From: Candidatus Aminicenantales bacterium
GTDB lineage: Bacteria; Acidobacteriota; Aminicenantia; Aminicenantales; UBA4085
DNA length: 64,000 nucleotides
Reading direction: 5' to 3'
Assembly (NCBI GenBank): GCA_049515535.1
Contig: JBEKTZ010000004.1
Span: forward strand, 201,462 to 265,461
Position numbers and translations under genes: made by a program. Shown here piece by piece: positions 2,901-50,743 of the stretch (positions are counted from its first letter, which is position 1; every line of letters starts with the position of its first letter). The notes beneath the pieces are model-generated. The model made no database searches and was not told the origin of the DNA. It saw only the letters and a list, made by a program, of their open reading frames with translations.

Positions 2901-2901
2901 G

Positions 2902-6120: not shown

Positions 6121-6298
6121 GGCGCTTCCTTTCTCGATAGAAACCAAAAAATAACACAGGCGAAGGGATCTTGTCAAAATCCTCGGCCGGAAAAATCGGC
6201 TCGGCGGCACCGGCCGCGTCCGAATCGACGCGGACAGTTCCGTCATTCGATTTTAAATTGAATTTTGAATCCGTTTATGCTAATTTAGCCGGGACTGC

Positions 6299-6374
6299 TC
6301 CCCGGTAGCTCAATAGGCAGAGCGGTTGGCTGTTAACCAATAGGTTGGAGGTTCGAGTCCTTCCCGGGGAGCCA
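6299..6374 (+). tRNA. tRNA-Asn (anticodon GTT)
   Basis: Cloverleaf read by hand. Acceptor stem TCCCCGG/CCGGGGA, D stem GCTC/GAGC, anticodon stem GTTGG/CCAAT, loop CTGTTAA, T stem GGAGG/CCTTC with TTCGAGT loop. CCA is encoded and a T-run follows. Confidence 0.85.
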
Positions 6375-6399
6375 TTTTTTTTCGTGCCGCCCGTCATCC

Positions 6400-7137: not shown

Positions 7138-7365
7138 GAAAACCTCCTTGGGCGCCGGGGACTTTTTTATGCGATGTCCGGCGACCGCCATGCCCTTCGC
7201 CCTTCTTCCGGCGGGGGAGAGGGTGATTTTATGACATCGTCATGATCTTACGGGAATGAAACCCATGGACCTTGGCCTGGGCGCGATCATGTTGATAAGC
7301 ATATTATAGCGAAGAAGCGTTCTCTTGACAAACCGGATTCCTCTTGTATCCGCATCGACAGCGAG

Positions 7366-15338: not shown

Positions 15339-15396
15339 ACCCCCGGCCTTCATTGACTTCGCCTCGACTCCGGTTATAATATCCTACGGAACGATC

Positions 15397-16440: not shown

Positions 16441-16457
16441 AGAAGGCGAAGGAACAC

Positions 16458-17153
16458 ATGGATATCGAAGACGAAAAAGAGCAGGAAGAAGATCCGGGGG
16501 AAGACACGGGACACCAGCCGGACGCGGATTCCGCCGGGGACGCCCCGGAAGACGAAAAAGAAAAGGGAACCGCGACGAAGAAGGCCGCGAGCGAAGAACA
16601 TGGCGGGCATGATCAACATGAAAAAGCGGATCATGAGGACGCTAAATCCTTGAAAGGAAAGCTCCGGAAGAAAGAGCATGAGATCAAAAACCACAAGGCG
16701 GAAATCGAGGAATTGAGAAAAGAGAAAGCCGAGATCAAAGATAAATTCCTCAGAGCGCTGGCCGAGATGGACAATCAGCGGAAGAGGCTCGAGCGGGAGA
16801 AGAGCGAGTTTTATCAGTTCGCTCTCAGCGATCTCCTCAAGGAAATATTGCTGGTTCTCGATAATTTCGAAAGAGCCCTGAAGAACAGGGATCAAACGGA
16901 TGACAAAAGCTTCCAAGAAGGCGTCGAGCTCATCTCTAAGCAGTTCCAAGATATGATCCGGAAACAAGGCCTGACTCCTGTCGGAGAGGAACATCAGAAA
17001 TTCGATCCCTCGGCCCACCATGCGGTCCTGACCGAAGAATCCGATCAAATCGATGAGCCGGAAATCGGCGAAGTGCTCCAGAAAGGCTACTTCCTCAACG
17101 ACCGGCTTCTCCGTCCCGCCCTGGTCAAAGTGATGGTTCCCAAAAAGAGCTAG
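16458..17153 (+). CDS. grpE: Nucleotide exchange factor GrpE
   Basis: Acidic N-terminus. Coiled-coil segment, then RALAEMDNQRKRLEREK...DLLKEILLVLDNFERAL and a C-terminal beta domain (GYFLNDRLLRPALVKV). Confidence 0.88.
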   Translation: MDIEDEKEQEEDPGEDTGHQPDADSAGDAPEDEKEKGTATKKAASEEHGGHDQHEKADHEDAKSLKGKLRKKEHEIKNHKAEIEELRKEKAEIKDKFLRALAEMDNQRKRLEREKSEFYQFALSDLLKEILLVLDNFERALKNRDQTDDKSFQEGVELISKQFQDMIRKQGLTPVGEEHQKFDPSAHHAVLTEESDQIDEPEIGEVLQKGYFLNDRLLRPALVKVMVPKKS

Positions 17154-17154
17154 A

Positions 17155-18723
17155 ATGGGCCCCATCATCGGCATCGATCTCGGCACGACGTATTCCTGCA
17201 TGGCCCACCTCGCGGGAGGGCAGCCGCGCGTCATTCCTAATCTGGAGGGGTCCACGACGACGCCGTCCATGGCGGCGTTCACGGCATCGGGGGATACCCT
17301 GATCGGGAGCATCGCCGCGAGACAGGCCGTCACGAATCCCGCAATGACGCTGTACGCCGTCAAGCGGCTGATCGGGAAAAAAGCGGGGTCTCCGGACGTC
17401 CAGAAAATCCGGAAGAGATTGCCGTACAAGCTGGCCGAAGCCCCGAACGGCGATGTCCTGATCGATATCGGGAACCGGATGATCACCCCCCAAGAGGTCT
17501 CGGCCTTGATCCTCGCCTACCTCAAGAGATGCGCCGAGTCCTATTTCGGCGAAGACATCATGGATGCGGTCATAACCGTCCCCGCGCATTTCGGCGATCA
17601 CCAAAGACAGGCGACCAAAGACGCCGCCGCCATCGCCGGGCTGAACGTCCTCCGTGTCATCAACGAGCCGACCGCCGCGAGCCTGGCCTTCGGCCTCGAC
17701 CAGAAGAAGAACGGCCGAGTGGCCGTCTTCGACATGGGCGGAGGGACGTTCGACATCACCCTGCTCGAGATCCATAACGGCGTGTTTCACATTCTTGCCA
17801 CGAACGGCGACTCCTTCCTTGGCGGCGAGGATTTCGACCAAAAAATCATCGACTGGTTCGTGGAAGAGGCGAAAAAAGAGCTTGGCATCGATCTCTCGGG
17901 CGACTTGTTCGCCCTGCAGAGAATCAAGGAGGCCGCGGAGCGGGCCAAGCGGGAGCTTTCGTTCACTCACGAAACCGAGATCAACCTGCCGTTCATCCAC
18001 GCCGCGCCGAGAGGTTCGGGTCATTTCCGCAAAGTGATATCGCGGTCCCTCCTTGAAAGCCTCACCGCGGATCTCGTCGAAAGGCCGTTTTCCCTGGTTG
18101 AACGGACTCTCGAAGAAAGCGGGCTCAAGCCGGGAGGGATCGACCACGTGATCCTCGTCGGAGGGCAGACGCGCATGCCGCTCGTCCGCGAGCGCGTTTC
18201 AAAATTCTTCAGGAAGAAAATTCACGAGCATGTCCATCCGGATGAAAGCGTCGCCCTGGGGGCGGCCATTCAATCCGGAATCCTGGAGGGAGAGCTGCGC
18301 GACCTTGTCCTGCTTCTGGACGTGACATCGTTCGCCCTCGGCATCGAGACCGAACGCGACGGCTACGAAAAAATCATCGAGAAGAACGCCACGATCCCCT
18401 TGAAGAAGGCCAAGGCCTTCACGACGGTCGAGAACAACCAGCGCCAAGTCAAAATCCATGTTTTGCAGGGCGACGGACCGCGCGCTTCGGACAGCGTGTC
18501 ATTGGCCAAGTTCGATCTCATCGGCCTTCTGCCGGCCCTGGCCGGAATCCCTCAAATCGACGTGACGTTCGAGATCGACGCGGACGGCCTGGTCAAGGTA
18601 TCGGCCAAGGATGCCTTGTCGGGCAAGGAGCAGAAGATCGTCGTCCGGCCCTCTTCGGGATTGAGCCGGCAGCAGATCAACAGCCTCCGGTTGAAGGCGC
18701 GGGATAAAGAGGCGAAGACGTAA
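17155..18723 (+). CDS. Hsp70-family chaperone paralog lacking the C-terminal alpha-helical lid (522 aa)
   Basis: Nucleotide-binding-domain motifs [24 protein letters not shown] and INEPTAAS, plus the interdomain linker LLLDVT and a beta-sandwich SBD. The protein ends ~25 aa after the SBD (...[23 protein letters not shown]), whereas the window's dnaK continues ~130 aa further. It sits in the dnaK position of an hrcA-grpE-X-dnaJ operon. Confidence 0.85.
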
Positions 18724-18727
18724 AGTC

Positions 18728-19858
18728 ATGGCCAAAAAAGATTATTATGAGGTGCTGGGGATTCCGCGGAGAGCCGCAGTCGACGACATAAAGAAAGCTT
18801 ACCGGCAAAAGGCATTGAAACACCATCCCGACCGCAACCCCGGGAATAAAGAAGCCGAGGAAATGTTCAAAGAAGCGGCCGAGGCGTATAGCGTCCTCGG
18901 CGATCCTCAAAAACGGTCCCTCTATGATCAGTACGGACCCGACGGACTCCGGGGCGAAGCGTTCTCGGGATTCAACGCGACGGTCTTCGAGGACTTCGAG
19001 GACATCCTCGGGAATATTTTCGGTTTTAATTTCGGCTTCGGGGATGTTTTCGGCTCCGGAACGAGACAGAGAGGCTCCTCGTCCCAACGCGGCCGGGATC
19101 TGGCTCTGGAGATAGAAATCACGCTCGAAGAGGCCGCGGCAGGCGTCGCCAAGGACATTTCCCTCCACCGGGCGGAGCCTTGTCCTTCGTGTCAGGGAAC
19201 GAAGTTGCGGCCGGGAACAAAGAAATCGATCTGTTCTTCATGCGGCGGCCGCGGGCAGATCCGCCATCATCAGGGTTTCTTCACGTTGGCAAGGACCTGT
19301 CCGCAATGCGGAGGGAGCGGAGACATCATCGCCACGCCTTGCGATGAATGCCGCGGGACTGGCCACATGCGGCAAAAAAAAGCGCTGAATGTCCGAATTC
19401 CGGCGGGTATCGATAACGGATCCCGGCTCCGTATCCAGGGGGAGGGGGAAGCCGGGGACGGGGAGGGGAGAAGGGGAGATCTTTACATCGCCATCAAGGT
19501 CATGACGCACGATTTCTTCGTGCGTGAGCAGAATCATCTGTATTGCGAAATCTCGATCGCGTTTGTCCAAGCCGCGCTTGGCGTAACCATCGAAGTTCCC
19601 ACGCTCGAAGGCGCCGAGAAGCTCAAGATTCCCCCCGGCACGCAATCCGGCGAGGTTTTCCGGTTAAAGGGCCGGGGGATCAAAGACCTGGAGAGCCGAA
19701 GGCTCGGCGACTTGCTCGTCAAGATTCAAGTGAAAACCCCGGAAGACCTGTCCAAGGAACAAAAGGGCGTGTTGCGCCAGCTGGCCGAGTTGCGCGCTGA
19801 AAATCTGGATTTCATCGACCGGGAGACCGTGATGAAAGAAAGACGTCGCGTCCATTAG
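18728..19858 (+). CDS. dnaJ: Co-chaperone DnaJ (second copy)
   Basis: J domain DYYEVLGI...HHPDRNP, a G/F region and four CxxCxGxG zinc-finger repeats. It starts 5 nt after the Hsp70 paralog. Confidence 0.9.
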
Positions 19859-39175: not shown

Positions 39176-40006
39176 ATGAATAAAACGAGTTTGAAAGCCT
39201 CAGCTTTAATTATATTGTTGGCTCTTATGATCCCGGCGGCGTCACGGGCGCAAAATGCGGCGGTGGAAAGCCGATGGGCCAGCGGGAACATCAAGATCGA
39301 CGGCGTCGCCAAAGAATGGGACGGTATTCCGCTTTTGACCTGGGATAAGGCCGAAATCCAATACGCTTTCCAAAACGACGCGGACACGCTTTATATCCTG
39401 CTCATATTCAAGAATCCTAAGTACCGCAGCAGCGTCGAAGAGGAAGGGCTGGTCGTTTATTTCGACGAAGCGGGGAAAACAAGAAATGATTACGGCATCA
39501 GCTTCCGTAAACGCCGGATCACGGCGGGAGAGCTGCTCAATCTCCTGGCAAAAGAAGGCCCCGTTTCTGACGATCAAAGGACGCAGGTGCAGTCGAAGCC
39601 CTTCTATGATTATTATGACAGCGAAGTAAAAGTCGCAAAGCTGGAATCGTCCCAAACACCCGGTGCAGGCGATGGGCGACGGGCGATCTTCCGCTATGCC
39701 CCGCAACAAAAAACGATGGTGTATGAGTTCGCCATCCCGCTAAATCGAGTTTCTACGGCTGCGGCTGGAGTCGGAGGGCAGCCCGGGGCGACTATCGCTC
39801 TCGGCTTCGAATGGGGAGGGCCAACGGAGGAACAGAGAAAAGCAATGATCCGCTATCAAGGCGGGAAGGCGAGCATATCCAACGAAGAGATCGACGGTGG
39901 AAAAACCGACCTTGTTATGCAAAAGACAGGATCTTCGGACCGCATTCCAACGAAATACTTCTTTTGGAACGAAGTACGGTTGGCTACTAAATCTCCGAGC
40001 GATTAA
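39176..40006 (+). CDS. Hypothetical secreted protein
   Basis: Signal peptide (MNKTSLKASALIILLALMIPAASRA). No recognisable catalytic motif. AGGAGG RBS upstream. GC content lower than the surrounding core genes. Confidence 0.55.
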   Translation: MNKTSLKASALIILLALMIPAASRAQNAAVESRWASGNIKIDGVAKEWDGIPLLTWDKAEIQYAFQNDADTLYILLIFKNPKYRSSVEEEGLVVYFDEAGKTRNDYGISFRKRRITAGELLNLLAKEGPVSDDQRTQVQSKPFYDYYDSEVKVAKLESSQTPGAGDGRRAIFRYAPQQKTMVYEFAIPLNRVSTAAAGVGGQPGATIALGFEWGGPTEEQRKAMIRYQGGKASISNEEIDGGKTDLVMQKTGSSDRIPTKYFFWNEVRLATKSPSD

Positions 40007-40402
40007 CCGAAACAAGCACGCCGGAAAAGGCGACGAGGCGACAGTCAGCTATTACTTTTCGCTTTTTTGAAATAATATAAAACCGATAATCTTAAATTCT
40101 GGGAAAAAGACCTCATATTGATAAAAATATTATCCTAATCGTTAATCCGCGATTAATCGTAATATGAATTGAGCCCAATAGAAGGGGATGGTTTTCCACA
40201 TATGCACAATTTGTTGTCTGCGATTTTTTGCACAATAGGGGAATAGTTGTAACAGATTGAATATAAAAGAAATAAAAAGGATATATAAAATGAGTCGCAT
40301 AACGATTATTATGTAAACTAACTAATTCTTTGCCATAATCTCCTAAAAAAGAGACGCCTAAGGCTAAATAGAAAGGTTTTTTCCTTCCCCCAAAAAAAGC
40401 GC
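40007..40402. other. ~400-bp AT-rich non-coding block (roughly 30% GC against ~60% background) with short palindromes
   Basis: No ORF of 60 aa or more on either strand. Contains the palindrome CGATTAATCG at 40150-40159, flanked by TAATCG repeats, and a near-DnaA-box TTTTCCACA at 40192-40200. It is immediately downstream of parB. Confidence 0.6.
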
Positions 40403-41209
40403 TTATTGGTGCTGTTTGAGCTTAGAAATCAAATCTTCGAGGATACGGATGATTTCCTGCCTGTTGACCGATTCCTTTTTGAATTCAATGCGAAGGCTGA
40501 AAGATCGATCTTCCTTCGGACTATAATTAAAAACATAAGATTTCTGTTTCTTCTTGTCTGCGTCCTTACTTTTCAGGAGTTTGGTCAAGTCGCGGGTGTC
40601 CTCTCTTTTTAAACCTCGCTCTTTTATATTGTCGAGGAGCGATGTCATTTCGTTCTCATTCTTGAGTTTGGAAATCTCGATCAAAATGCTTCGATTTTTA
40701 TCTAATGAATGGGTTTGGCAAAGACGGCGTATCGAAGCGGGTATCTTGCTGATGTTGATGATTTCCGTAATGGTGGATCGCGCTTTGCCGATTTTCTCGG
40801 AAATTTGGCTATGGCTATAACCATAGGTATCCATTAAAGCCTTTAACCCGTCCGCTTCTTCGAAGATGTCAAGGTCTTTGCGCTGAAGATTCTCTATCAG
40901 CGAGATTTCCATGGCCTCGTTATCAGTCGCGTTCATTTCAATACAGGGTATGTCCTTGAGGGCCGCGTTTTTGGATGCCACATAGCGGCGTTCTCCGGCG
41001 ATGATCTCGTATTTATCGCCCTTGGGACGGACGATGATCGGCTCCAGAACCCCCTTGGCTTTGATCGACGTCACCAACTCTTCGATATTTCCTAGCTCGC
41101 TGCGCGCTTGGCGGGGGTTAGGCTCAATGCGATCCAACGCAATGAGGCGTAACAGCGGAGCGCTGGCTTTTTTGGAAATGAACTCGACGAAATGCGTGTC
41201 ATGCCGCAT
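40403..41209 (-). CDS. parB: ParB/Spo0J-family partition protein with divergent C-terminal region
   Basis: ParB N-terminal box (LEPIIVRPKGDKYEIIAGERRYVAS, GxRR motif) and an HTH (SHSQISEKIGKARSTITEII). The C-terminal ~110 aa are Lys/Glu-rich and not recognisably Spo0J-like. Start trimmed to MRHDTHF just after the parA stop. Confidence 0.75.
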   Translation of the reverse strand: MRHDTHFVEFISKKASAPLLRLIALDRIEPNPRQARSELGNIEELVTSIKAKGVLEPIIVRPKGDKYEIIAGERRYVASKNAALKDIPCIEMNATDNEAMEISLIENLQRKDLDIFEEADGLKALMDTYGYSHSQISEKIGKARSTITEIINISKIPASIRRLCQTHSLDKNRSILIEISKLKNENEMTSLLDNIKERGLKREDTRDLTKLLKSKDADKKKQKSYVFNYSPKEDRSFSLRIEFKKESVNRQEIIRILEDLISKLKQHQ

Positions 41210-41237
41210 TCCGATGGTGTCCGGAAGTCCTGATCGT

Positions 41238-42002
41238 TTAGTTTTTTGCACGGTCCAAAATCTCCTCGGCCACTTTTTTGTATTGGAGAGAGCCGATCGA
41301 AGCGGCCGCATAAGTGAAGATCGATTCCTTATAAGCCGGGCTTTCTTCAAGCTTGACGCTCTTAGAGATATGGGTATGAAAGACTTTTTCGCCGAAGACG
41401 CGTTGAATGCGCTCGACCACGTCTCTAGCGATATTTGTCCGGGTATCATGCAAAGTGATCAAAACCCCGAGGATTTGGAGTCCGGGATTCGCTACTCGTC
41501 TCACCTTCTCGATCGTCTCGAGAAGATCATCCGTCCCCTCGAGACTGAGGAACGATGATTGAATAGGAATCAGGAGATGTGATGCCGCCACCAAGGCATT
41601 CAAGGTAATCAAGCCGAGCGTCGGCGGCGTATCGATGAAGATGAAATCATAGCGTTCGCGGATCGGCTCGATGATGTCTTTCAAACGAAAATGCCCGTCA
41701 ATCTGACCCAGCAAAGACGCTTCAAGTTTGGCCATGGATGTCCTGGCGATGGCGACATCCAAACCTGGGACAGTGGATTTCATGATCACGCTTTGGATTT
41801 TCATTTCAGGACGCATGAGAACATCATAAAGAGACATTTCGCTGCGATCAGGATCTTTGACGCAGAACTTTGTGCTATGGCCCTGAGAATCGGTATCGAC
41901 AAGGAGAATGCGGCAGCCGCTGAGCGCTAAAGCGGCCGATACATTGACGGCTGTCGTGGTCTTGCCGACTCCCCCTTTCTGATTGGTTATGGCGACGATC
42001 AC
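41238..42002 (-). CDS. parA: ParA/Soj-family partition ATPase
   Basis: Deviant Walker A NQKGGVGKTTTAVNVSAALA, Walker A' LLVDTDSQ and Walker B FIFIDTPP. Confidence 0.88.
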   Translation of the reverse strand: MIVAITNQKGGVGKTTTAVNVSAALALSGCRILLVDTDSQGHSTKFCVKDPDRSEMSLYDVLMRPEMKIQSVIMKSTVPGLDVAIARTSMAKLEASLLGQIDGHFRLKDIIEPIRERYDFIFIDTPPTLGLITLNALVAASHLLIPIQSSFLSLEGTDDLLETIEKVRRVANPGLQILGVLITLHDTRTNIARDVVERIQRVFGEKVFHTHISKSVKLEESPAYKESIFTYAAASIGSLQYKKVAEEILDRAKN

Positions 42003-42395
42003 AATTCATGACTCCGAAAAATTTCTTGAGGATACATTTTAAAAAAACCCTGAACTACCATAACGAATATCGCCGAAAAGTTCAAGCTTTTATTTTTGGG
42101 GATGTCGGCCGGCCGACATTTGATGTAACTGTCGAGATATCAAATAATTAGGAGATAAATAGTGACGAGCGGCGAGAACGGGATTCACGGAATAAAAGAA
42201 AAATGGTTCGAAGATATCGCCAAAGGGAGTTCATCCGGCGCCTGATTTTTTCAGATCGATTTATAATACAATTAATCTATAGGAATAGTAATATATTATT
42301 GAAGTCTCTGCTATCTTTGCATATAATGCGTTGGAGAAAATTGAAAAGAATTTTATGAGTCATTCACGATGATAAAAATTTCATAATAAGGCTGG
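42003..42395. other. ~390-bp AT-rich divergent intergenic region between parA (-) and the permease (+)
   Basis: Low GC and no ORF of 60 aa or more. It contains the 18-bp palindrome at 42102-42119 and AT-rich stretches that could serve as promoters. Confidence 0.6.
42102..42119. repeat. Perfect 18-bp palindrome ATGTCGGCCGGCCGACAT about 100 bp upstream of parA; candidate centromere-like or operator site
   Basis: Read directly from the sequence. It is GC-rich and embedded in an AT-rich promoter region. It does not match the canonical parS (TGTTNCACGTGNAACA). Confidence 0.5.
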
Positions 42396-43787
42396 TTGAT
42401 TTTGAATGAGCTCGATCGAAAACTTGGCCTTGCGGATTCCGTTTTCCTCGTTATAGGATCCGTTTTTGGATCCGGCATTTTTCTCACAACCGGCATCATA
42501 GCCGGCTATATTCCCTCTCCGGGTCTGATCTGTATCGTTTGGATTCTCGGAGGAGTCCTGACTCTGTTGGGGGCCTTGGCTTATGCCGAACTCGGAACAT
42601 TATTTCCCGGGGCGGGAGGACCTTACATCTATCTCAGAGAAGCCTACGGCCCATCGGTCTCATTTCTTTACGGCTGGACGTTTTTTTGGGTGATAGGAGG
42701 AGGAGGGATCGCCGCGCTGGCCATGGGGTTCGCCGAATATGCAGGGGTCCTGGTTCCTGGACTATCAGCCGATAAACTTCTTCTAGATTCAGGCCTCGGA
42801 CCGATCAAAGTTCATTTGACCGGCGCCCACTTCACGGCCGTTTTTTCGATCGTGGTTCTTTCCTTGCTCAACCTTTTCGGTGTCAAATCAGGGGTCCTCT
42901 TCCAGAACTTCATGACGGTCTTGCGCTTCCTTGCCCTGGGCGCTTTTGTCGCTTTCGGTCTCGTTCTCGGACGCCATCCCGGCCTGCTTAATCTGCATCC
43001 GCTATTTCCGAAAGGCCCTCTCCCCTCCTGGACTTTGTTCGGCGCCGCCTTCTTGGCCGTCGTATGGACCTATGACGGTTGGTATTCCGTGAACTGCGCC
43101 GCGGAAGAAGTCCGGAACCCGCAACGAACGATTCCTCGCTCGCTTGTCCTGGGCACGATAGCTGTTACCGTGCTTTATTTGATGGCCAATATGGTTTATA
43201 GTATAGCTCTTCCGGTGGAGAATATGCGTGGTGTCGTCCGGATCGGTGAACTCGCGGCTCTCCGTCTTTTCGGGCCCGGCAGCGCCCTGTTTTTTTCGGC
43301 CTTGATCGCCGTCGCTATTCTAGGTTGCCTGAGCGCGAATATTCTGTACTGCCCTCGAGTCTCATTCGCCATGGCTCGGGACGGCTTATTCTTCAAAAGT
43401 CTCTCGGTCGTCCATCCCCGGAAACGCGTTCCTTCGAACGCCATCCTGGCCCAGATGATCTGGTCGAGCTTGCTCTGCTTTTCAGGAACGTATCAGGGCC
43501 TCATCGAATATGTGGCCTTCGCCCTGGTCCTCTTCTTTGCCGCCACGGGCTTTTCCGTGTTCGTTCTCCGGCGGAAGATGCCGGAGCGGGAACGTCCCTT
43601 CCGGACATGGGGATATCCCGTTTTACCGGCTCTTTACATCGTCTCCAACTCGGCCATTTTCTTTGCCGTGATCATAGCCCGGCCGCTCCAGGCCTTGGCC
43701 GGAGCGATCCTGATCGCGGCCGGTCTGCCGGCGTATTTGCTCTGGATGAAAAACAAGCGGATCCGCGCCGATGGAGCAAGGGCATGA
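42396..43787 (+). CDS. APC-superfamily amino acid/polyamine permease
   Basis: 12 predicted TM helices and the N-terminal APC motif GSVFGSGIFLTTGIIAGY. TTG start as listed. Confidence 0.8.
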   Translation: MILNELDRKLGLADSVFLVIGSVFGSGIFLTTGIIAGYIPSPGLICIVWILGGVLTLLGALAYAELGTLFPGAGGPYIYLREAYGPSVSFLYGWTFFWVIGGGGIAALAMGFAEYAGVLVPGLSADKLLLDSGLGPIKVHLTGAHFTAVFSIVVLSLLNLFGVKSGVLFQNFMTVLRFLALGAFVAFGLVLGRHPGLLNLHPLFPKGPLPSWTLFGAAFLAVVWTYDGWYSVNCAAEEVRNPQRTIPRSLVLGTIAVTVLYLMANMVYSIALPVENMRGVVRIGELAALRLFGPGSALFFSALIAVAILGCLSANILYCPRVSFAMARDGLFFKSLSVVHPRKRVPSNAILAQMIWSSLLCFSGTYQGLIEYVAFALVLFFAATGFSVFVLRRKMPERERPFRTWGYPVLPALYIVSNSAIFFAVIIARPLQALAGAILIAAGLPAYLLWMKNKRIRADGARA

Positions 43788-45556
43788 GACGCGTCGTGAA
43801 AGTTCTTCCGGAAGGACTGGATTTGAGAGCCGCACCGGGCGAACTTCTGTCCGATGTCATGGAGAGAGCCGGTATCCCCCTCAGCTTGTATTGCGGGCGC
43901 CGGGGCTTATGCGGCAAATGCCGCGTCGAAATCGTCCGCGGAGCGATTCCTGAGGCGGATGAATTCGAGCGAAGTCTCATGGCGCGAGGGAGTCTTCCCA
44001 AAAACCATCGTCTCGCCTGCCGCTTCCATGTCGATAGCGATGTGTCTGTCCGCGTTCCTCCGGGATCTCGGATCCTCCAAATGCCCGTATTGAGCCGGGG
44101 AACCGGACGCTCCGTCGCGTTGGCTCCCGCCATAAAAAAAATAAGGTTCTCCTTATCGAGACCCGGCCTTGTCTCCGCCGATAGCGTCTTGGATTCGATC
44201 CATCTCCAATTCCCCGGGATCGCGCTTCGCGGGCCCTCTCTGGAAACGTTGCGGCGATTGTCCCGCCACGCTCTCGTGGAAAGCGGGCCGGCCAGAGACA
44301 TGACCGCTGTCATCCATGCCGATGCAGAATTGCTCGATATAGAGCCGGGAGACACAACCGCCAGGAATTTCGGCCTTGCCATTGACCTGGGAACGACGAC
44401 CGTCGTCGTCGAACTCCTGGATTTGAACTCGGGGACCTCTCTGGGCTCAGTGACCGGGCTCAACGCTCAGGCCCAATTCGGAACCGACGTCGTGTCGAGA
44501 ATCACGGCGGCTTATATGGACGCGGGAAAACTCAAGGAACTGCGCGCCTCCGTCGTCGCGGGCCTCAACGCCATGATCGGCGTGTTGATCGCTGAAAATC
44601 AGGTGTCTTCGGACGCCGTGTATGAAACGGTCCTGGCCGGCAATACGGCCATGAACCACCTCTTTCTCGGCCTGTCCGTCGCGACACTGGCCGTCGCTCC
44701 CTATCATGCCGTCTTCAGCGTCCTCCCGGCGCTTCCGTCGGCCGAGACGGGGCTCACCGTCAACCCTCTCGGAAAAGTTTATCTCGCTCCCAACATAAAA
44801 AGTTTTGTCGGCGGAGACATCGCCGCCGGACTGGCCGCGGTCGGCATGGACCGTCAAAAAGGAAATTTCCTTTTCGTCGATTTAGGAACGAACGGGGAAA
44901 TCGTCATCAAAAAAGGGACCCGTTTTACGACAACGTCGACGGCCGCCGGACCCGCTTTCGAAGGAATGGCGATCGGTTGCGGCATGCTCGCTCTTCCCGG
45001 CGCCGTTTATAAGGCCCACTATGGAAAAAATCTGATGATTGAGACTATCGGCGGGTTGCCGGCGCGCGGCATCTGCGGCACGGGCCTCATCGACCTCGTG
45101 GCAGGCGCCTTGGACAAAGGCCTCGTTTCTTCCCGGGGAAATGTCCTGAATCCATCCAGGACAATCGCCGTCACGAAGGATATCTCCTTGATCCAGAAGG
45201 ATATCCGCGAGATCCAATTGGCCGTCGCGGCCATAAAGACGGGCATCCGGATGTTGCTCGGGGAGAACAGGATGACGACCGGAGATCTTGACGGCATTTA
45301 CGTAGCCGGAGCGTTCGGAAATTACCTCAGCATTGATAACGCCGTGAAGCTTGGCCTTCTCCCCCGTTTCAACCGCCGTAAGATCCATTTCGTCGGCAAT
45401 ACCTCGGTGGCCGGGGCCAAGGCCCTCCTCTTGTCGCTCTCCGAACGGAGGCGCTGTGAGAAAATGGCTCAAAAAATTCGTCATGTCAGTTTGGCAAAGG
45501 GCGACGAATTTCAAGCGGCCTTCGTCGAAGCGCTGGAGTTCAAAGCCTGGAGTTGA
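43785..45556 (+). CDS. RACo-type reductive activator of corrinoid proteins (plant-type 2Fe-2S ferredoxin domain plus ASKHA ATPase domain)
   Basis: N-terminal ferredoxin Cys pattern YCGRRGLCGKCRV...LACRF. The C-terminal region has ASKHA motifs (LAIDLGTTT, FVDLGTNGEIV, AGAFGNYL). The ATG overlaps the permease stop (ATGA). Confidence 0.65.
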
Positions 45557-45592
45557 GTCAGGAACGCAAATTCCGCCTGAAGGAGTCTTTCC

Positions 45593-46258
45593 ATGGAATT
45601 GAAGAATCGTCTGTTGCGAATGATGGCCGCGGCCATCGTCGAAGGTGACAAGGAAACGGCCGAAGTCCTGGCCAGGAAAGCCTTGGCCGAGAAGCTCGAT
45701 CTCCACGAGGTCATCGATAAAGGATATCTCCCGGGCATCCAAAAAGTCGGCGAACTCTGGGAGAAGGGGGAGTATTTCCTGCCCGAGCTCATCACCAGCG
45801 CCGAATGCATGAAGGCGGCCATGGCCGTTCTCAGACCGTCGCTGGAAGCCTCCCACGCGAACAGCTTGTCCCGTGGAAAAATCGTTATCGGGACGATCGA
45901 AGGCGATATTCACGATATCGGGAAGAACCTGGTCGCGTCGATGCTCTCGGCCAATGGGTTCGAAGTCATGGATCTGGGCGCCGACGTCAAGCTGACCCGA
46001 TTCATCGATAAAGCCCAGGAAACGCAGGCGGAGATCATCTGCCTGTCCGCCCTGCTCACGACAACGATGCTCAATCAGGGGCGTCTGATCGAACTGCTCA
46101 AGGAGCGCGGACTTCGCGAACGGTTTAAAGTGCTCGTGGGCGGCGCCCCTGTGACGCGGAAATGGGCGGCGGATATCGGGGCGGACGGCTACGGGGAAAA
46201 CGCGCCGAGCGCCGTCAAACTAGCCCTGGAGATCAGCCCGAAAAGAGGCCAATTATGA
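45593..46258 (+). CDS. Cobalamin-binding corrinoid protein (B12-binding domain with N-terminal helical cap)
   Basis: DxHxxG motif (GDIHDIGKN) followed by a Rossmann-like B12-binding fold. Layout matches MtmC/MtbC/MtgC-type methyl carriers. Confidence 0.75.
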   Translation: MELKNRLLRMMAAAIVEGDKETAEVLARKALAEKLDLHEVIDKGYLPGIQKVGELWEKGEYFLPELITSAECMKAAMAVLRPSLEASHANSLSRGKIVIGTIEGDIHDIGKNLVASMLSANGFEVMDLGADVKLTRFIDKAQETQAEIICLSALLTTTMLNQGRLIELLKERGLRERFKVLVGGAPVTRKWAADIGADGYGENAPSAVKLALEISPKRGQL

Positions 46259-47724
46259 TCCGGGCCAAGCGTCCCAAGGTCGAGCTCCTCAGCCGGACGT
46301 TCGTCGAGAAGATCATCGGTGAAGCTCTGCTTCTCCTGGAGCGGCAAGGCGTATTTGTCGAGAACGCGGAAGCCCGCGCGCTCTTCAAGCTCGCGGGAAT
46401 GTCCGTTGACGAAACGCATTTCCGGGTCCTTATCCGACAAAAGCTCATCGAGGAATCCCTTGCCTCGACGCCGTCGGCCTTTAAAATCTATGACCGCTCG
46501 GGAAAAAAGGCCTTTACCATAGGACGCGATCATGTCCATTTTGACCCGGGCTCGGCGGCCGTCAAAATCCTTGACCATACGACGCGGCAGGAAAGGAGGC
46601 CCGAGACGGGCGACTTGATCCGGCTGTCCCGGCTGACCGAGGCCTGCGAGCACATCCATTTTCAAAGCACCGCTCTCGTCAGCGGCGATGTCCCGGAGAA
46701 TATCGCCGACAGCTATCGGCTTTTCCTCAGCCTGCAATTCTCATCCAAACCGATCGTGACCGGAACGTTCCGGACGACGGGTTTCCGGCCGATGTTCGAG
46801 ATGCTGGCCGCCGTCCGCGGCGGGAGCGACGAGCTCCGGCGAAAACCGCTGGCCATATTCGACGCCTGCCCCTCCCCTCCCCTGAAATGGAGCAACCTGA
46901 CCGCGCAGAGCCTCATTGACTGCGCCCGGGCCGGTATTCCTTCCGAACTCATTTCCATGGGACTGACGGGCGCGACCTCTCCGGTAACGATTGCCGGCAC
47001 ACTCGTTCAGCACGTGGCCGAGAACCTGGCCGGTCTGGCGATCTGCCAGCTCGCGGGCAAGGGCGTGCCCGTGATCTTCGGCGGTTCGCCGGCAAGCTTC
47101 GACATGCGCAAAGGCACGACGCCCATGGGGGCGATCGAAACGATGATGATCGATATGTCCTATGCTCAAATCGGAAAACACCTCGGCCTTCCGACGCACG
47201 CTTATATGGGTCTGAGCGACGCCAAGATCAACGACTCGCAATCCGGATTGGAAACGAGCATGGGCGCCGTCCTCGCGGCGCTGGCCGGCATCAACGTCGT
47301 ATCTGGCGCCGGGATGGTGGATTTCGAGAGCGCGCAGAGCCTCGAAAAAATTCTGATCGACAATGAAATCTGCGGCATGGCCTACCGGCTAATCGAGGGG
47401 GTCGCCCAGCGTGATGAACCCCTGGCTCTGTCCCTTTTTGAGAAGCTCGGTCCGGAAAGCCAGTTCCTGACCATGCCCCATACGCGGAAATGGTACAGGA
47501 TCGAACACATGCTAACGTCCTTGGCCGATCGCGATACTTATGACGCCTGGGCCGCGCAGGGCGCGAAATCCATGGCCGATAGGGCGCACGAGCGTATCGA
47601 CCAGATCCTCGGCGGGACCGCCCCGAACCTGCTGAGTTATGACCTTCAGAAAGAACTCCGGAGGATCATGCTCGACGACGCCGTGATCAACGGATCCGGA
47701 AGCCTTCCGGAGATCCGGTTTTAA
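46255..47724 (+). CDS. MttB-superfamily methyltransferase, non-pyrrolysine member (quaternary amine:corrinoid methyltransferase-like)
   Basis: About 490 aa with MttB-like TIM-barrel layout and no in-frame amber codon. Its start overlaps the corrinoid-protein stop (ATGA). The methyl-donor substrate cannot be determined from sequence. Confidence 0.65.
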   Translation: MIRAKRPKVELLSRTFVEKIIGEALLLLERQGVFVENAEARALFKLAGMSVDETHFRVLIRQKLIEESLASTPSAFKIYDRSGKKAFTIGRDHVHFDPGSAAVKILDHTTRQERRPETGDLIRLSRLTEACEHIHFQSTALVSGDVPENIADSYRLFLSLQFSSKPIVTGTFRTTGFRPMFEMLAAVRGGSDELRRKPLAIFDACPSPPLKWSNLTAQSLIDCARAGIPSELISMGLTGATSPVTIAGTLVQHVAENLAGLAICQLAGKGVPVIFGGSPASFDMRKGTTPMGAIETMMIDMSYAQIGKHLGLPTHAYMGLSDAKINDSQSGLETSMGAVLAALAGINVVSGAGMVDFESAQSLEKILIDNEICGMAYRLIEGVAQRDEPLALSLFEKLGPESQFLTMPHTRKWYRIEHMLTSLADRDTYDAWAAQGAKSMADRAHERIDQILGGTAPNLLSYDLQKELRRIMLDDAVINGSGSLPEIRF

Positions 47725-48330
47725 GTGAACGAGCAGGTCATTCTCGGCGATTTCTCGTTTCGCTGGGACCACGATAAGATCCTGGTTCGAATCGGGTGCA
47801 AGGGCGGAAGAAGGGCGGCGGCCCCTTCTCTCCTTGCCCTCCTTGAGGAAATAGAGACGAAGCTTCCCGATCTGCTTAGGCCAAGGGGGGCGTATACGAT
47901 TATCGGTCACGAACAAACGAACGGGCATGGCGTCTTCGACAAAGCGGTCTTGGTCGCCCTTGGCCTCGTCACAGCCGGACCGATGATCGAGGCGGCATGC
48001 GAGAAATCATTCCAACAGGGCGATCCGATCAGCGGGCTCGTCTTGGATGCCTTCGGGACGGACGCGATCGTTCAAATCTTCAAGCAGACCGAGCGCCGCA
48101 TCGTCGAAGAGGCCTTACGGCGCGGCCTATGGCCGAGCAAGAGATTCTCGCCGGGATATCGCGGCTGGCCGCTCGAAGAACAGCGGTTTCTCTTTGGGAA
48201 GATCGACGCCTCGGCCATCGGCGTGCGCCTCAACGAATCGTGCATGATGGTTCCGCGCAAATCGAATTCCTTTCGGATCAATTTCTACGCCGACCGGAGC
48301 CTAACGAGCCGCCGCCTGGAAAAAGAATAG
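47725..48330 (+). CDS. Stand-alone homolog of the methionine synthase (MetH) reactivation / AdoMet-binding domain
   Basis: KRFSPGYRGWPLEEQRFLFGKIDAS resembles the conserved RxxPGYPxxPDHTEKxxLFxLLDA core of the MetH activation domain. The GTG start directly abuts the upstream stop. Confidence 0.5.
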   Translation: MNEQVILGDFSFRWDHDKILVRIGCKGGRRAAAPSLLALLEEIETKLPDLLRPRGAYTIIGHEQTNGHGVFDKAVLVALGLVTAGPMIEAACEKSFQQGDPISGLVLDAFGTDAIVQIFKQTERRIVEEALRRGLWPSKRFSPGYRGWPLEEQRFLFGKIDASAIGVRLNESCMMVPRKSNSFRINFYADRSLTSRRLEKE

Positions 48331-48355: not shown

Positions 48356-50743
48356 ATGGTAAAACTAGCGCTTATCCGTATGAATAACCGGCAAAAAAAC
48401 ATCGCTTTTTTCCTTTTATTCCTCGTTTTGACTCTTCTTTTCACGTATCCGCTCGTTCTTCGCATCGGCTCGGCTCTCCGGGGGACCGACCTCAACGCCT
48501 TGGGCGATCCTTTGTTCAACACCTGGGTTCTTGCCTGGGACGACCATAAGATCTCCCGGCTGGATTTTAAGGGGTTCCTGGACGCCAATTCGTTCTATCC
48601 CCAGCCTCATACGCTTCTGTATTCCGAAATTCTTCTGCCCCAGTCGTTATTGGCCCTTCCCGTCCAGCTCCTGACCGGCAATCCCGTCTTTGCCTATAAC
48701 TTCGTTTTCCTCTTGGGCTTGATCCTATCGGGCTACGGCATGTTCCTTCTGGCCCGGCATTTGACAAAGAGCGTGGCCGGCGGAATAGCCGCCGGAATGA
48801 TCTTCGCTTTCTCGCCTTTCTTCATCTCTCACTTTTTCCAGATCCAGATCGTCACCGCCTGGGGCATTCCATTCGCGTTTTTATATCTTCATAAATTCTT
48901 CGAACAAGACCGGCTCAAATATCTTCTTCTCTTCACTTTTTTTTATGTCGCGCAGGCCCTGAGCAACGATTATTATGCGCTTTATCTGTCGTTCTTCATG
49001 GGTCTTTGGATCTTCTATTTCGCGATCGCGCAGAAGAAATACCGTCAAATCCGCTTTTGGGCGCAGATGGGTCTGTTCTGCCTGATTTCTCTGACGATGA
49101 CAGGACCTATTTTTTATCAATACGCCAAGATCCATAATGAGATGGGATTTGTCCGGGGAATGGATTTTTATGCCCGCTTGACCAGTTATCTGGCCGCTCC
49201 CCCCGTCAACTGGCTTTACGGCAGGATCACGGCCCGCTTTATCATCCCCGAAGGCGAGCTGTTTCCCGGAATCATGGCCTTCGTCTTGGCTACGATCTCG
49301 ATCATCACCCTCGTCAAAGCCCGCGAACGCCGGACACCGGAAAAGCAAGACGAACCTAAAAAGTCGTTTTACGTCATACACCGCGTCCTCAATATCCTGA
49401 TCCTCATGTCTGCCGTCATCGTAATCTTCATCATGGGAGAAGGGGGTTTGGATCTGAATATTTTCGGCGTCAAGCTCATCAGGGCGCACAACCTGGGTCG
49501 TTCGCTGGCGCTGTTCTGCGTCCTTCTCATCGCCCGGATCCTCCTCGACATGGTCTTCAAATTCGAGCGCCGAACTCCGAAACATCCGGATGAAAGAAAC
49601 CTCATCGTCTATGCGGGAATGCTTCTCCTGGCCTTTCTCTTCACTTTTGGACCCCATGGGCCATATCTCTACCTGTATAAATACATTCCGGGTTTTCAAG
49701 CCGTCCGCGTCGCTTCCCGGTTCGGCGTCATGGTCATGTTTGCGTTGGCGGCGTTGGCGGCCTTCGGTCTCAGGGACATGATCTGCCGTTTTCGTCCGAC
49801 GAAAAAGACGGTCTGGACCGTCGTGGTCCTGCTGATCATCGGGATCGAATATCTTTCCGTCCCGATTCCCTATTACACGATTCCCGTCAAAAGGGAAATC
49901 CCTGATTGTTATCAATGGTTGGCGGCGTCGCCGGAGCGCGGTGTTCTGGTTGAACTCCCTCTGCCGTCCTATGCCCAGGGCGCCGGTTCGGTCGAAACGG
50001 CGCGCATGTATTTTTCGACCTATCACTGGAACTCTTTGATCAACGGCTATAGCGGCTGGTTTCCGCCGCTCTACAGTGAACTCTGCCGGCGCTGGGAGCA
50101 GTGGCCTCTTGAGAAGCTTTTGCGGGATTTCCGGACCCTGGGCGTGAAATATGTCCTGATCCATTTTGACGAGTTCGCAGAGAATGAGAGGCCGGCTTAC
50201 AAAGAAAAATTCGCTGCTGTCGAGAGCGAACTCCATCTTGTGAAACAATTCGAAGATGATTATCTTTGCGAAGTGATGCCCAAGAATGTCATTCCGGCGG
50301 AACGACCCACTCCGGCCGGGATGAAAAAACTCGACCGGACGGGCTGGACTGTCCGAGCTTCAATTAGCAACGATCGAGCCCCCCTGGCCATCGACGGCTC
50401 CCTGGAAACGCGCTGGGACTCGGGCGCGCAGAACCCGGGCGATTTTTTCGAGATCGACCTGAACAAGCCATCCGTCTGCCGCTGCGTCTCGCTGAAGTTC
50501 GGCCCGAGCGGCCTCGATTTTCCGCGCGGATACAAGATGGAGATTTCGAACGACGCAAAGACCTGGACCGAAGTCGCCCGCGATGAACAAACCGACCTTC
50601 CAATCCTAAGATACGTCAAACCCAGAAATCTGGATTTGGACATCTTCATGCCTCCCAGGGAGACCCGCTATATCCGGATCACGAACCTGGGCGCGGACAA
50701 TAAGTTTTACTGGTCGATTTACGACATCCAGATCTATCAATAA
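48356..50743 (+). CDS. Large polytopic membrane protein (GT-C-like N-terminal region) with C-terminal F5/8 type C (discoidin) domain
   Basis: About 14 TM helices over ~600 aa. The C-terminal ~150 aa carry discoidin-like motifs (SLETRWDSGAQNPGDFFEIDL...YIRITNLG). Confidence 0.6.
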   Translation: MVKLALIRMNNRQKNIAFFLLFLVLTLLFTYPLVLRIGSALRGTDLNALGDPLFNTWVLAWDDHKISRLDFKGFLDANSFYPQPHTLLYSEILLPQSLLALPVQLLTGNPVFAYNFVFLLGLILSGYGMFLLARHLTKSVAGGIAAGMIFAFSPFFISHFFQIQIVTAWGIPFAFLYLHKFFEQDRLKYLLLFTFFYVAQALSNDYYALYLSFFMGLWIFYFAIAQKKYRQIRFWAQMGLFCLISLTMTGPIFYQYAKIHNEMGFVRGMDFYARLTSYLAAPPVNWLYGRITARFIIPEGELFPGIMAFVLATISIITLVKARERRTPEKQDEPKKSFYVIHRVLNILILMSAVIVIFIMGEGGLDLNIFGVKLIRAHNLGRSLALFCVLLIARILLDMVFKFERRTPKHPDERNLIVYAGMLLLAFLFTFGPHGPYLYLYKYIPGFQAVRVASRFGVMVMFALAALAAFGLRDMICRFRPTKKTVWTVVVLLIIGIEYLSVPIPYYTIPVKREIPDCYQWLAASPERGVLVELPLPSYAQGAGSVETARMYFSTYHWNSLINGYSGWFPPLYSELCRRWEQWPLEKLLRDFRTLGVKYVLIHFDEFAENERPAYKEKFAAVESELHLVKQFEDDYLCEVMPKNVIPAERPTPAGMKKLDRTGWTVRASISNDRAPLAIDGSLETRWDSGAQNPGDFFEIDLNKPSVCRCVSLKFGPSGLDFPRGYKMEISNDAKTWTEVARDEQTDLPILRYVKPRNLDLDIFMPPRETRYIRITNLGADNKFYWSIYDIQIYQ

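Follow-up and report, generated by a model that had tools for sequence, protein, structure and literature searches.

An Aminicenantales operon that encodes an MttB-family methyltransferase and two predicted corrinoid activators

Described corrinoid methyltransferase systems and the operon

The non-Pyl methyltransferases of the MttB family from Desulfitobacterium hafniense (MtgB-MtgC-MtgA) and Eubacterium limosum (MtpB, MtcB, MtyB, and MthB) are first methyltransferases (MT1) that use acidic quaternary amines, and they work with a cognate corrinoid protein, a RamA-type activator and a pterin-binding second methyltransferase (MT2). In the characterised non-Pyl MttB systems, the methyl group is passed to tetrahydrofolate or coenzyme M and not to homocysteine. 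Glycine betaine is bound by MtgB through cation-pi contacts of Y97 and F356 and carboxylate contacts of R312 and H348, and R312 is conserved across all characterised acidic quaternary-amine methyltransferases (PMC13080624), those of D. hafniense and E. limosum included. The Methanosarcina barkeri system comprises MttB, MttC, and RamA (7XCL, 7XCN); its MttB carries pyrrolysine and its acceptor is coenzyme M, via MtbA.

Other described systems include methionine synthesis. In Ruegeria pomeroyi, MtgBCDE combines methylamine demethylation and methionine synthesis on one corrinoid carrier, which is common to an MttB-family enzyme and a homocysteine module and is repaired by RamA (PMC12478193). The split MetH, a three-part enzyme in Phaeobacter inhibens, is served by a RamA-like protein and a second reactivation protein (PMC5764234). 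In the TM0268/TM0269 pair of Thermotoga maritima, TM0269 (1J6R) is a separate gene beside its presumed corrinoid client and serves a fused Hcy-Pterin-B12 MetH that uses methyl-tetrahydrofolate. The core methionine synthases MesA/MesB also make methionine independently of folate from a free corrinoid protein, as is proposed below for the operon, but MesA-D are MetE-like rather than PF02574 proteins and have no MttB linkage (PMC7857596).

The operon described here, located in a 64-kb stretch of Candidatus Aminicenantales DNA (the window), is a variant of this known kind; the described systems that come nearest to it are roseobacter MtgBCDE and the TM0268/TM0269 pair. Like the roseobacter systems (PMC12478193, PMC5764234), it has a separate MttB-family enzyme, a free corrinoid protein, a RamA/RACo-like activator and a second reactivation protein, while a stand-alone homocysteine S-methyltransferase (HcyMT) is found in sister operons. 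In the roseobacters, however, the pterin-binding MtgD is required, the second reactivation protein is DUF1638 instead of PF02965, the genes are scattered, MtgC is CmuA-like, glycine betaine serves as the substrate, and the bacteria are aerobic. The window, in contrast, has no pterin module, a MetH-type reactivation protein (ACT), an MttC-like corrinoid protein and an MttB without the betaine-binding residues; its genes are packed into tight operons, and the lineages that carry them are uncultured and represented by MAGs only. The initial annotation had suggested an undescribed variant system; as an idea it is not entirely new, a link between MttB-family enzymes and a split methionine synthase having been shown in Ruegeria in 2025 (PMC12478193).

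Gene order and gene products

The operon (42396-48330) consists of five intact ORFs on the + strand, with no in-frame stops. The features assigned are the following:

42299..42327, + strand: promoter-like site TTGAAG-17-TATAAT (10/12), from a consensus scan; weak assignment
42396-43787, + strand (start at 42402 in the public gene call): APC-superfamily permease (ORF, PF13520)
43784-45556, + strand: RACo-type activator, 590 aa (Pfam)
45593-46258, + strand: corrinoid protein, 221 aa (TIGR02370)
46255-47724, + strand: MttB homolog, 489 aa (PF06253)
47725-48330, + strand: ACT, 201 aa (family profile and fold)

Start/stop overlaps had been claimed for the operon, but only two of the four junctions are overlaps; the others are one abutment and one short spacer. 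The permease and RACo genes overlap by ATGA at 43784-43787, one base before the position given earlier (43785); the corrinoid protein and MttB genes do so at 46255-46258, beginning where it had been placed; and the MttB stop codon abuts the GTG start of ACT (TAAGTG, 47722-47727). The RACo and corrinoid protein genes are instead separated by a 36-nt spacer with an AAGGAG ribosome-binding site. The five-gene operon is real. The identical gene order is present in at least six other contigs, with protein identities of 57-95%, and the dN/dS of each of the five genes is 0.15-0.27, that is, all of them are under purifying selection; given this recurrence and this constraint, the arrangement is more than chance. 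Upstream, the promoter-like site sits in the 390-nt AT-rich gap that runs from the divergent parA to the permease gene; six such sites were found by the scan versus 2.6 expected in shuffles. No riboswitch or other Rfam family was matched upstream of the operon.

The identities first proposed for the five products are borne out by Pfam and NCBIfam profiles, PDB matches and the fold of ACT. The permease (463 aa from the TTG at 42396, or 461 aa from the TTG at 42402) matches AA_permease_2 (PF13520, E 1.5e-55) and, in NCBIfam, generic amino-acid-transporter models only, every one under its cut-off. The activator begins with a 2Fe-2S ferredoxin domain (Cys37, 43, 46, and 79), continues with a linker and a middle domain, and ends in an ASKHA ATPase domain; the profile search by which its assignment was queried matched Fer2 (6.9e-9), Raco_middle (1.5e-52), and RACo_C_ter (1.7e-65). 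It is also a full-length match (residues 14-583, E 1.5e-85) for Carboxydothermus hydrogenoformans RACo (3ZYY), which, together with the 2Fe-2S domain, sets it apart from M. barkeri RamA. The RamA and AcsV equivalog models were both rejected, their cut-offs not being reached (160 vs 500 for RamA, TIGR04270). It is predicted to be an ATP-dependent activator that reduces Co(II) to Co(I) in the partner corrinoid protein. The latter comprises a B12-binding_2 cap and a B12-binding Rossmann domain (Pfam), scores 228.5 bits against TIGR02370 (curated cut-off 215.3) and has the DxHxxG motif as DIHDIG (D105-G110). Its closest PDB match is M. barkeri MttC (7XCN_M, E 3e-57), and it also matches the MetH B12 domain 1BMT (E 6e-30).

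The MttB homolog matches the MTTB profile PF06253 over residues 2-470 (E 1.1e-89; 301.2 bits, cut-off 25). As had been stated, it is a non-Pyl protein: the pyrrolysine position is Leu320 (CTG), with no UAG in frame. The model of the Pyl-containing trimethylamine methyltransferase (TIGR02369) was rejected (395.8 vs cut-off 525, no in-frame stop), and a PYLIS_3 match was sub-threshold (33.6 vs 38) and is explained by coding homology. Placed against the characterised members, it is equidistant from D. hafniense MtgB (2QNE/9YCE, E 2e-65) and M. barkeri MttB (7XCL, E 6e-64), and the latter also has its SDAK and GAGM segments, which surround the active site. It is not of the betaine type, however. 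The positions of MtgB Y97, R312, H348, and F356 are occupied by S, H, S, and E, residues that are common to 69-71 of the 73 linked MttB homologs; the sequences thus define a distinct subfamily, and an MtgB-type glycine betaine methyltransferase was rejected as an identity, all four binding residues being replaced. The betaine or carnitine substrate suggested earlier is unsupported, because this subfamily lacks the MtgB binding residues, R312 included. Its presumed function is that of an MT1, with Co(I) in the corrinoid protein as the methyl acceptor.

For ACT, the proposed homology to the MetH activation domain is supported by the family profile and the fold. In the suggested search with Met_synt_B12 (PF02965), the single sequence scored below threshold (20.5 bits vs cut-off 25, E 3.7e-4), and 38 of the 46 family members were matched at E <= 1e-3 (best 1.1e-9). 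The sole PDB match of the family profile is 1J6R (TM0269, E 1.6e-11). The AF2 model (pLDDT 96.3) gives 19 Foldseek matches at E <= 1e-3, all MetH reactivation domains, again with 1J6R at the top (E 6.8e-13, TM 0.76 over 197 columns). By hhalign, the match to the E. coli MetH domain is weak (E 1e-3, 48 columns); its RPAPGY nonetheless aligns with RFSPGY of ACT (residues 140-145), in which P143 and G144 are invariant in the family and R140, S142, and Y145 reach a conservation of at least 90%. The pattern RxxxGY is the AdoMet-binding motif (R1134-Y1139 in E. coli MetH). ACT and TM0269 are alike in their short fold, in the RxSPGY motif and in being a separate gene, even though their sequence identity is only about 16% and ACT neighbours a free MttC-like corrinoid protein and MttB rather than a fused MetH. 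From motif and model, ACT is predicted to be an AdoMet-dependent reductive methylator of the partner corrinoid protein. An ATP-type and a SAM-type activator are thus encoded in one operon, as the initial annotation had noticed.

Gene neighbourhoods and the methyl acceptor

The surroundings of ACT point to a functional link with the corrinoid protein (Corr) and MttB. An ACT homolog is flanked on either side by at least 3 kb in 43 genome loci, and in 35 of them both a corrinoid protein and this MttB lie no more than 4 kb away. The orders are Corr-MttB-ACT, Corr-ACT-MttB, and Corr-HcyMT-ACT-MttB, and the clusters come from Aminicenantes, Zixibacteria, Terriglobales, and other MAGs. Since some genomes keep ACT alone or RACo-ACT only (L016, L024, L026, L038, L058, and L065), ACT may also serve a different client. 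Metagenomes, those of the gut among them, contain homologs with 27-39% identity directly upstream of a fused Hcy-Pterin-B12 MetH, which is followed by MetF; no MetH was found in any Aminicenantes locus examined.

The absence of a pterin-binding MT2, already claimed for the operon, extends to the 64-kb window and to the 10 kb further left (74 kb in all), which were read from a JGI contig with an identical DnaJ and the same gene order. No Hcy-binding gene was found there either, so that the stand-alone PF00809 and PF02574 genes of MtgBCDE and the split methionine synthase have no counterpart in this span. Among about 170 related loci, no pterin-binding (PF00809) gene was detected beside this MttB subfamily, although very distant MT2s could be missed by the tblastn screen, for which the E. 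coli pterin domain was the query; the sole pterin matches were fused classical short MetHs with an ACT homolog directly upstream. The neighbours in these loci included no other recurrent gene family of unknown kind. Neither the Pfam scan of window ORFs nor the loci's gene tables reported DUF1638, and ACT would fill the role of that reactivation protein here.

HcyMT (PF02574, E about 1e-70), whose zinc-site motifs, Cys and GGCCG, are invariant, is a better candidate for the missing MT2 than a pterin protein. Of 80 ACT-anchored loci, 11 include it in the cluster, and the HcyMT-anchored look-ups gave the order Perm-RACo-HcyMT-Corr-MttB (Perm, permease) in all seven distinct Aminicenantes loci. 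Four of these seven operons lie between parAB and a beta-CASP gene, which is the slot of the window operon. HcyMT overlaps RACo and Corr by 4 nt each in L174 and L177, a metagenome scan added five more operons of the same order, and the deepest branches of the NJ tree built from the linked MttBs all go with HcyMT. Its occurrence in sister operons, in the same slot and in the deepest branches, favours a MetH taken apart into separate proteins over a catabolic system of the MtgBCA type. A general role as methylcorrinoid:homocysteine methyltransferase is supported by L107, where HcyMT is beside CoFeSP subunits and RACo, and homologs with at least 56% identity were found away from MttB in 9 of 15 well-flanked loci.

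It is important to note that HcyMT was not found within 10 kb in any member of the window-type clade (L003/L010, L005, L011-L013, and L066), an observation that weighs against the MetH-like reading. The same can be said of the complementary distribution of the two proteins: most Perm-RACo-HcyMT-Corr-MttB operons have no ACT, and the window-type operons have no HcyMT. The full set occurs together only in some loci (L079, L092, L093, L081, L084, L085, and L087). Another point against this reading is that the acceptors in the characterised non-Pyl MttB systems are tetrahydrofolate or coenzyme M. The slot is dynamic, with HcyMT only in L117, Perm-HcyMT in L096, and MttB remnants in L034/L052.

Proposed route of the methyl group and rival explanations

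With about even confidence, we propose that the operon is part of an undescribed, folate-independent synthesis of methionine from an imported methylated compound, in the form of a disaggregated MetH-like system. The permease would import a methylated nitrogen compound, probably non-acidic, and the MttB-subfamily enzyme, standing in for the methyl-tetrahydrofolate module of methionine synthase, would take a single methyl group from it to methylate Co(I) in the MttC-like corrinoid protein. We infer that in this genome the methyl group flows towards homocysteine: HcyMT would demethylate the methyl-Co(III) protein to give methionine, acting in the window lineage, unlike in the sister lineages, from another locus. 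After oxidation of the cofactor to Co(II), the 2Fe-2S cluster of RACo and ATP would drive its reduction, and ACT would trap Co(I) as methyl-Co(III) with S-adenosylmethionine. RACo and ACT are not necessarily alternatives, as the electron from RACo may be coupled by ACT to SAM methylation.

The operon might otherwise serve catabolic methylotrophy as MtgBCA does, the imported amine being demethylated and an unlinked pterin-binding MT2 loading tetrahydrofolate with the methyl group, which would then be oxidised or used in acetogenesis, with RACo and ACT only keeping the cofactor active. All characterised bacterial non-Pyl MttB systems work so (PMC13080624; PMC12478193 for MtgD), HcyMT is missing from the window operon, and a dedicated permease suggests bulk uptake. 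We nevertheless consider this explanation doubtful, given that no pterin-binding neighbours were detected in about 170 loci (very distant MT2s aside), that HcyMT is recurrent, translationally coupled and present in the deepest branches, and that elsewhere MetH is the only known partner of ACT. It is improbable that the operon is a decaying or repurposed remnant, its pathway left incomplete by the loss of the homocysteine module from an ancestral Perm-RACo-HcyMT-Corr-MttB(-ACT). HcyMT does lie inside sister operons at the same, dynamic slot; but the five ORFs are intact, the active-site signature of MttB is kept, the dN/dS values hold against relatives of 57-79% identity with the same HcyMT-less order, and HcyMT homologs are often apart from MttB anyway.

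The initial annotation had itself considered that the 201-aa protein might merely serve a split metH elsewhere. In that case its adjacency would be incidental, and ACT would reactivate only a classical short MetH and have no role with the MttB corrinoid protein; the homologs upstream of fused MetHs, arranged as in TM0268/TM0269, and the Aminicenantes loci with ACT alone would agree with it. This is quite improbable because the linkage of ACT to Corr and MttB is tight in variable gene orders, ACT often lying between the two, and spans several phyla; moreover, ACT abuts the MttB stop codon in the window, and the Aminicenantes loci have yielded no MetH. The ACT homologs beside classical short MetH in other taxa weigh against dismissing this scenario fully. 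Reverse operation, in which ACT would load the corrinoid protein from SAM, MttB would methylate an amine and the permease would export the product, would explain two methyltransferase-like partners without a classical MT2. It is highly improbable, since precedent is lacking, direct SAM-dependent N-methyltransferases make the route unnecessary, the ACT-less sister operons with HcyMT cannot run so, and RACo would still be needed.

A broader form of the methionine proposal, which we regard as unlikely, is that the S/H/S/E MttB is no ordinary demethylase of quaternary amines but a new methyl-donor module; with the corrinoid protein and HcyMT, it would make up the principal methionine synthase, B12-dependent and independent of folate, in Aminicenantes, Zixibacteria, and uncultured lineages related to them, with RACo as the dedicated electron donor to ACT and HcyMT encoded elsewhere in the window lineage. 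If true, the transfer from RACo to ACT would be a two-protein repair relay not yet described.

The permease, presumed to be the importer of the methyl donor, is confirmed as a recurrent partner: of the 43 ACT-anchored loci, 9 have a homolog adjoining MttB or HcyMT, as do 7 of the 15 anchored on HcyMT. In the distant locus L081, a homolog with 37% identity lies downstream of MttB.

Organisation of the operon and its surroundings

The five-gene corrinoid methyltransferase operon of the initial annotation is confirmed by its reading frames, junctions and domain profiles. Five plus-strand ORFs without internal stops lie between a divergent parA and the gene of a 795-aa membrane protein, and the features of the region are the following:

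41238-42002, minus strand: parA, divergent from the operon
About 70 nt upstream of the permease gene, in the AT-rich gap: promoter-like TTGAAG-17-TATAAT, from a consensus scan
42396/42402-43787, plus strand: ORF, permease, APC by Pfam and NCBIfam
43784-45556, plus strand: ORF, RACo, with Fer2, middle and ASKHA domains
45593-46258, plus strand: ORF, corrinoid protein, TIGR02370 above cut-off
46255-47724, plus strand: ORF, MttB homolog, PF06253
47212-47311, plus strand: Rfam match to PYLIS_3, the mttB pyrrolysine insertion sequence, below the gathering score of 38 (33.6 bits)
47725-48330, plus strand: ORF, 201-aa homolog of the MetH reactivation domain (ACT)
48356-50743, plus strand: 795-aa membrane protein, multi-pass, its C-terminus an F5/8 type C domain, starting 25 nt past ACT with no terminator between

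The start/stop overlaps proposed for the five genes hold at 43784 and 46255 (ATGA) and as a TAA/GTG abutment at 47722, whereas 36 nt separate the RACo and corrinoid protein genes, and this gap contains an AAGGAG site. No intrinsic terminator was found on the plus strand after ACT, and with the threshold relaxed to E <= 1 the sequence before the operon still matched no cobalamin, SAM or other Rfam riboswitch or leader family. The 795-aa F5/8-type-C protein was rejected as an operon member because its downstream position is not conserved in relatives, in which the usual downstream gene is BNR/sortilin-like and on the opposite strand. Purifying selection acts on each of the five genes (dN/dS 0.15-0.27 versus the related loci L003 and L005), and therefore the operon, which lacks the stand-alone homocysteine S-methyltransferase (HcyMT) of its sister operons, does not appear to be decaying.

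The remainder of the window is of housekeeping character (dnaK/dnaJ, PEPCK, cysS, alaS, lon, tig, rho, and parAB). The GC content is 0.455 at 40001-42400, a segment spanning parB/parA and the 390-nt AT-rich intergenic region before the operon, versus about 0.55-0.58 elsewhere. Two chaperone sets are present: dnaK (5'-truncated by the window edge)-dnaJ-MerR/HspR-like at 11-3306, and a separate hrcA-grpE-dnaK-dnaJ operon at 15295-19858. An IstB/DnaC-like AAA ATPase gene (3575-4357, plus strand), wedged between chaperone genes and PEPCK and preceded in the conspecific contig L173 by a 62-aa sigma70_r4 ORF, is perhaps the remnant of an IS21-type element or else a helicase-loader-like gene.

The MttB homolog and its substrate-binding positions

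The MttB homolog matches PF06253 with an E-value of 1e-89. According to a 2026 study (PMC13080624), glycine betaine is bound in MtgB by Y97, F356, R312, and H348, and every characterised member with an acidic substrate retains R312. When aligned with the Desulfitobacterium hafniense glycine betaine enzyme (DhMtgB) and Methanosarcina barkeri MttB, the window protein carries Ser, Glu, His, and Ser, respectively, at these positions, and Leu at the pyrrolysine (Pyl) position; the same four residues recur in 69-71 of 73 linked homologs, which share 48-79% identity. Since the MtgB binding residues, R312 included, are replaced, the betaine- or carnitine-type substrate first expected for this enzyme is unlikely. 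In a rough neighbour-joining tree, in which the characterised comparators were restricted to DhMtgB and M. barkeri MttB from PDB alignments (MtpB, MtcB, MtyB, MthB, and Ruegeria MtgB being left out), the MttBs linked to ACT or HcyMT form one clade apart from both enzymes. All its deepest branches carry HcyMT, and the window-type permease-RACo-corrinoid protein-MttB-ACT clade is monophyletic and nested inside Aminicenantes. By these comparisons, the window MttB is a member of a distinct subfamily.

A pyrrolysine reading of the window gene was also considered and rejected. The PYLIS_3 match begins exactly at codon 320 (CTG, Leu), the counterpart of the UAG that encodes Pyl in M. barkeri mttB. 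The frame contains no stop, and the sub-threshold match looks like an echo of coding homology.

A second MttB lineage, with 29-30% identity to the window protein, is found at L121:4886-7870 and L125:4569-7858, also in an MttB-corrinoid protein-HcyMT arrangement. It has T/W/H/G at the four MtgB positions (Y97/R312/H348/F356), where the window protein has S/H/S/E, and Cys at the Pyl position.

Corrinoid carrier and reactivation proteins

The corrinoid protein contains the DxHxxG motif and resembles M. barkeri MttC most (E 3e-57) and MetH less (E 6e-30), and the permease is of the amino-acid type. The proposal of a RACo-type activator is well founded: besides its three domains, the protein aligns along its entire length with 3ZYY, the structure of RACo from Carboxydothermus (E 1.5e-85), and its N-terminus contains four Cys.

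The assignment of ACT to the MetH activation domain was likewise upheld. ACT alone scores only 20.5 bits on PF02965; 38 of the 46 proteins in its family match that profile. In the PDB, a profile built from the family hits TM0269 (1J6R) and nothing else (1.6e-11), and a fold search with the AF2 model (pLDDT 96.3) retrieves 1J6R (TM 0.76) and then MetH reactivation domains only. The motifs RxSPGY and MxPRKS, invariant or nearly so in the family, have RPAPGY and MWPGAS as their aligned counterparts in E. coli MetH. Direct profile comparison with the E. coli activation domain gives a weak match of 48 columns, so the assignment rests on 1J6R and the fold search. The family is large (3061 clusters of stand-alone short proteins at 50% identity and E <= 1e-10), and in other taxa homologs with 27-39% identity lie directly upstream of a classical fused Hcy-Pterin-B12 MetH followed by MetF, which makes this family the generic reactivation partner of MetH in stand-alone form.

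A scan of GTDB species genomes recovered 80 loci with ACT homologs. Within 7 kb of ACT were found this MttB (60 loci), the corrinoid protein (59), RACo (13), a PF02574 gene (11), and the permease (8); among loci with at least 3 kb on either side, both MttB and the corrinoid protein lay within 4 kb in 35 of 43. The order varies (corrinoid protein-MttB-ACT, corrinoid protein-ACT-MttB, corrinoid protein-HcyMT-ACT-MttB) across Zixibacteria, Terriglobales, and other taxa. This linkage outlasts rearrangement and therefore argues for a functional tie of ACT to the MttB and corrinoid protein genes. Loci were annotated by tblastn and simple ORF calling, with taxon labels as in the records; several TPA MAGs labelled 'uncultured Eubacteriales' group with Aminicenantes sequences.

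RACo and ACT are immediate neighbours, in that order, with no corrinoid protein or MttB nearby, at L016:5152-7546 and L024:8195-10585 (Desulfaltia and an Aminicenantales MAG); such an isolated pair is consistent with cooperation of both repair proteins. Apparent pseudogenisation of MttB is seen in some lineages, as short N-terminal remnants after corrinoid protein-ACT (L034:10106-10466, L052:7186-7344) or as two overlapping ORFs (L092:9562-11027).

Homocysteine methyltransferase and the proposed pathway

The interpretation given in the initial annotation stands in part: the betaine or carnitine substrate is not supported, whereas the claim that no pterin-binding second methyltransferase (MT2) is encoded was borne out by tblastn and Pfam in the operon, the 64-kb window, and a 10-kb left extension. 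In the window and extension, no MT2 or MetH was detected by tblastn with E. coli MetH domains, Aminicenantes HcyMT, and a short MetH, or by Pfam searches of about 30 other window ORFs and the extension, and no pterin-binding gene stands beside this MttB subfamily in any locus examined. The recurrent gene instead is HcyMT, of about 295 aa (PF02574, E about 1e-70), with invariant zinc motifs (Cys and GGCCG). Five HcyMT context look-ups yielded seven distinct Aminicenantes loci, all permease-RACo-HcyMT-corrinoid protein-MttB, with 4-nt overlaps at both HcyMT junctions in L174 and L177; four of the seven occupy the chromosomal slot of the window operon, with parAB on one side and a beta-CASP gene on the other. 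A metagenome scan added five more such operons, as well as corrinoid protein-HcyMT-MttB clusters in more distant lineages.

The parAB-adjacent slot was compared between window 41238-48330 and other Aminicenantes loci (L117, L096, L090/L091/L177, L062, L045, L082). Its contents vary: L117 has only HcyMT, L096 permease-HcyMT, and further subsets and orders of the permease, RACo, HcyMT, corrinoid protein, ACT, and MttB genes include permease-RACo-HcyMT-corrinoid protein-MttB, corrinoid protein-ACT-MttB(-permease), and permease-RACo-corrinoid protein-MttB-ACT. The slot acts like a modular cassette in which genes are often gained and lost. HcyMT (at least 56% identity) is unlinked from MttB in 9 of 15 well-flanked loci. 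Clusters lacking HcyMT also occur in OY970122.1, in the order RACo-corrinoid protein-MttB-ACT, in GCA_022866045.1, and in the MAG that contains ERZ27250059 k141_528924. Given this frequent unlinking and the variable slot, an unlinked HcyMT in the window genome is plausible; among the five HcyMT contexts none shared an assembly with an HcyMT-less cluster, all being in operons of other assemblies.

In a scheme drawn entirely from sequence, the permease would import a methyl donor, MttB would methylate Co(I) on the corrinoid protein, and HcyMT, acting in trans in the window genome, would pass the methyl group to homocysteine. Once the cofactor is oxidised to Co(II), RACo would provide ATP-driven reduction, and ACT would use AdoMet to trap Co(I) as methyl-Co(III), by analogy with MetH, in which flavodoxin and the activation domain perform AdoMet-dependent Co(I) trapping. 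Split MetH, with a RamA-like activator alongside a second reactivation protein, offers a precedent (PMC5764234), as do TM0268/TM0269 for a separate activation protein and MesA-D for folate-independent methionine synthesis from corrinoid proteins (PMC7857596). The closest system is Ruegeria MtgBCDE, which joins an MttB-family enzyme and a homocysteine module on one common corrinoid protein, but requires the pterin-binding MtgD, has DUF1638 where the window has PF02965, and differs in its scattered genes, betaine substrate, and aerobic hosts (PMC12478193). Our literature search found no paper naming PF02965 together with PF06253, and none on MttB-HcyMT operons.

If correct, this scheme would mean that the recently found link of MttB-family demethylases with methionine synthesis, described in aerobic marine Alphaproteobacteria, also exists in widespread uncultured phyla of sediments, there in a simpler form that dispenses with folate and consists of MttB, a corrinoid protein, and a homocysteine module. 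The occurrence of a MetH-type SAM-dependent ACT with an ATP-dependent RACo in one operon makes RACo testable as the source of reductant for stand-alone activation domains in bacteria with no assigned reductant for them. The sharply conserved non-betaine active-site signature allows a new substrate class of the MttB superfamily to be sought. Present annotations call these genes trimethylamine methyltransferase or hypothetical protein; for these clades, metabolic reconstructions from MAGs, in which mttB homologs are often interpreted as catabolism of glycine betaine or TMA, would have to be revised.

Other HcyMT contexts were also observed. At L107:2718-7879, HcyMT (6968-7879) directly follows RACo (5058-6983) and a pair of CdhD-family genes for CoFeSP subunits, one of which encodes an FeS domain. 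The arrangement suggests a methionine synthase that would draw on the corrinoid iron-sulfur protein of the Wood-Ljungdahl pathway by way of a PF02574 module, and fits HcyMT as a general methylcorrinoid:homocysteine methyltransferase. At L098:8000-8611, a DUF3786 gene lies directly 3' of a stand-alone HcyMT, with a corrinoid protein (39% identity) and RACo about 4.5-5 kb downstream and without MttB; this may be a further donor module that serves the same acceptor.
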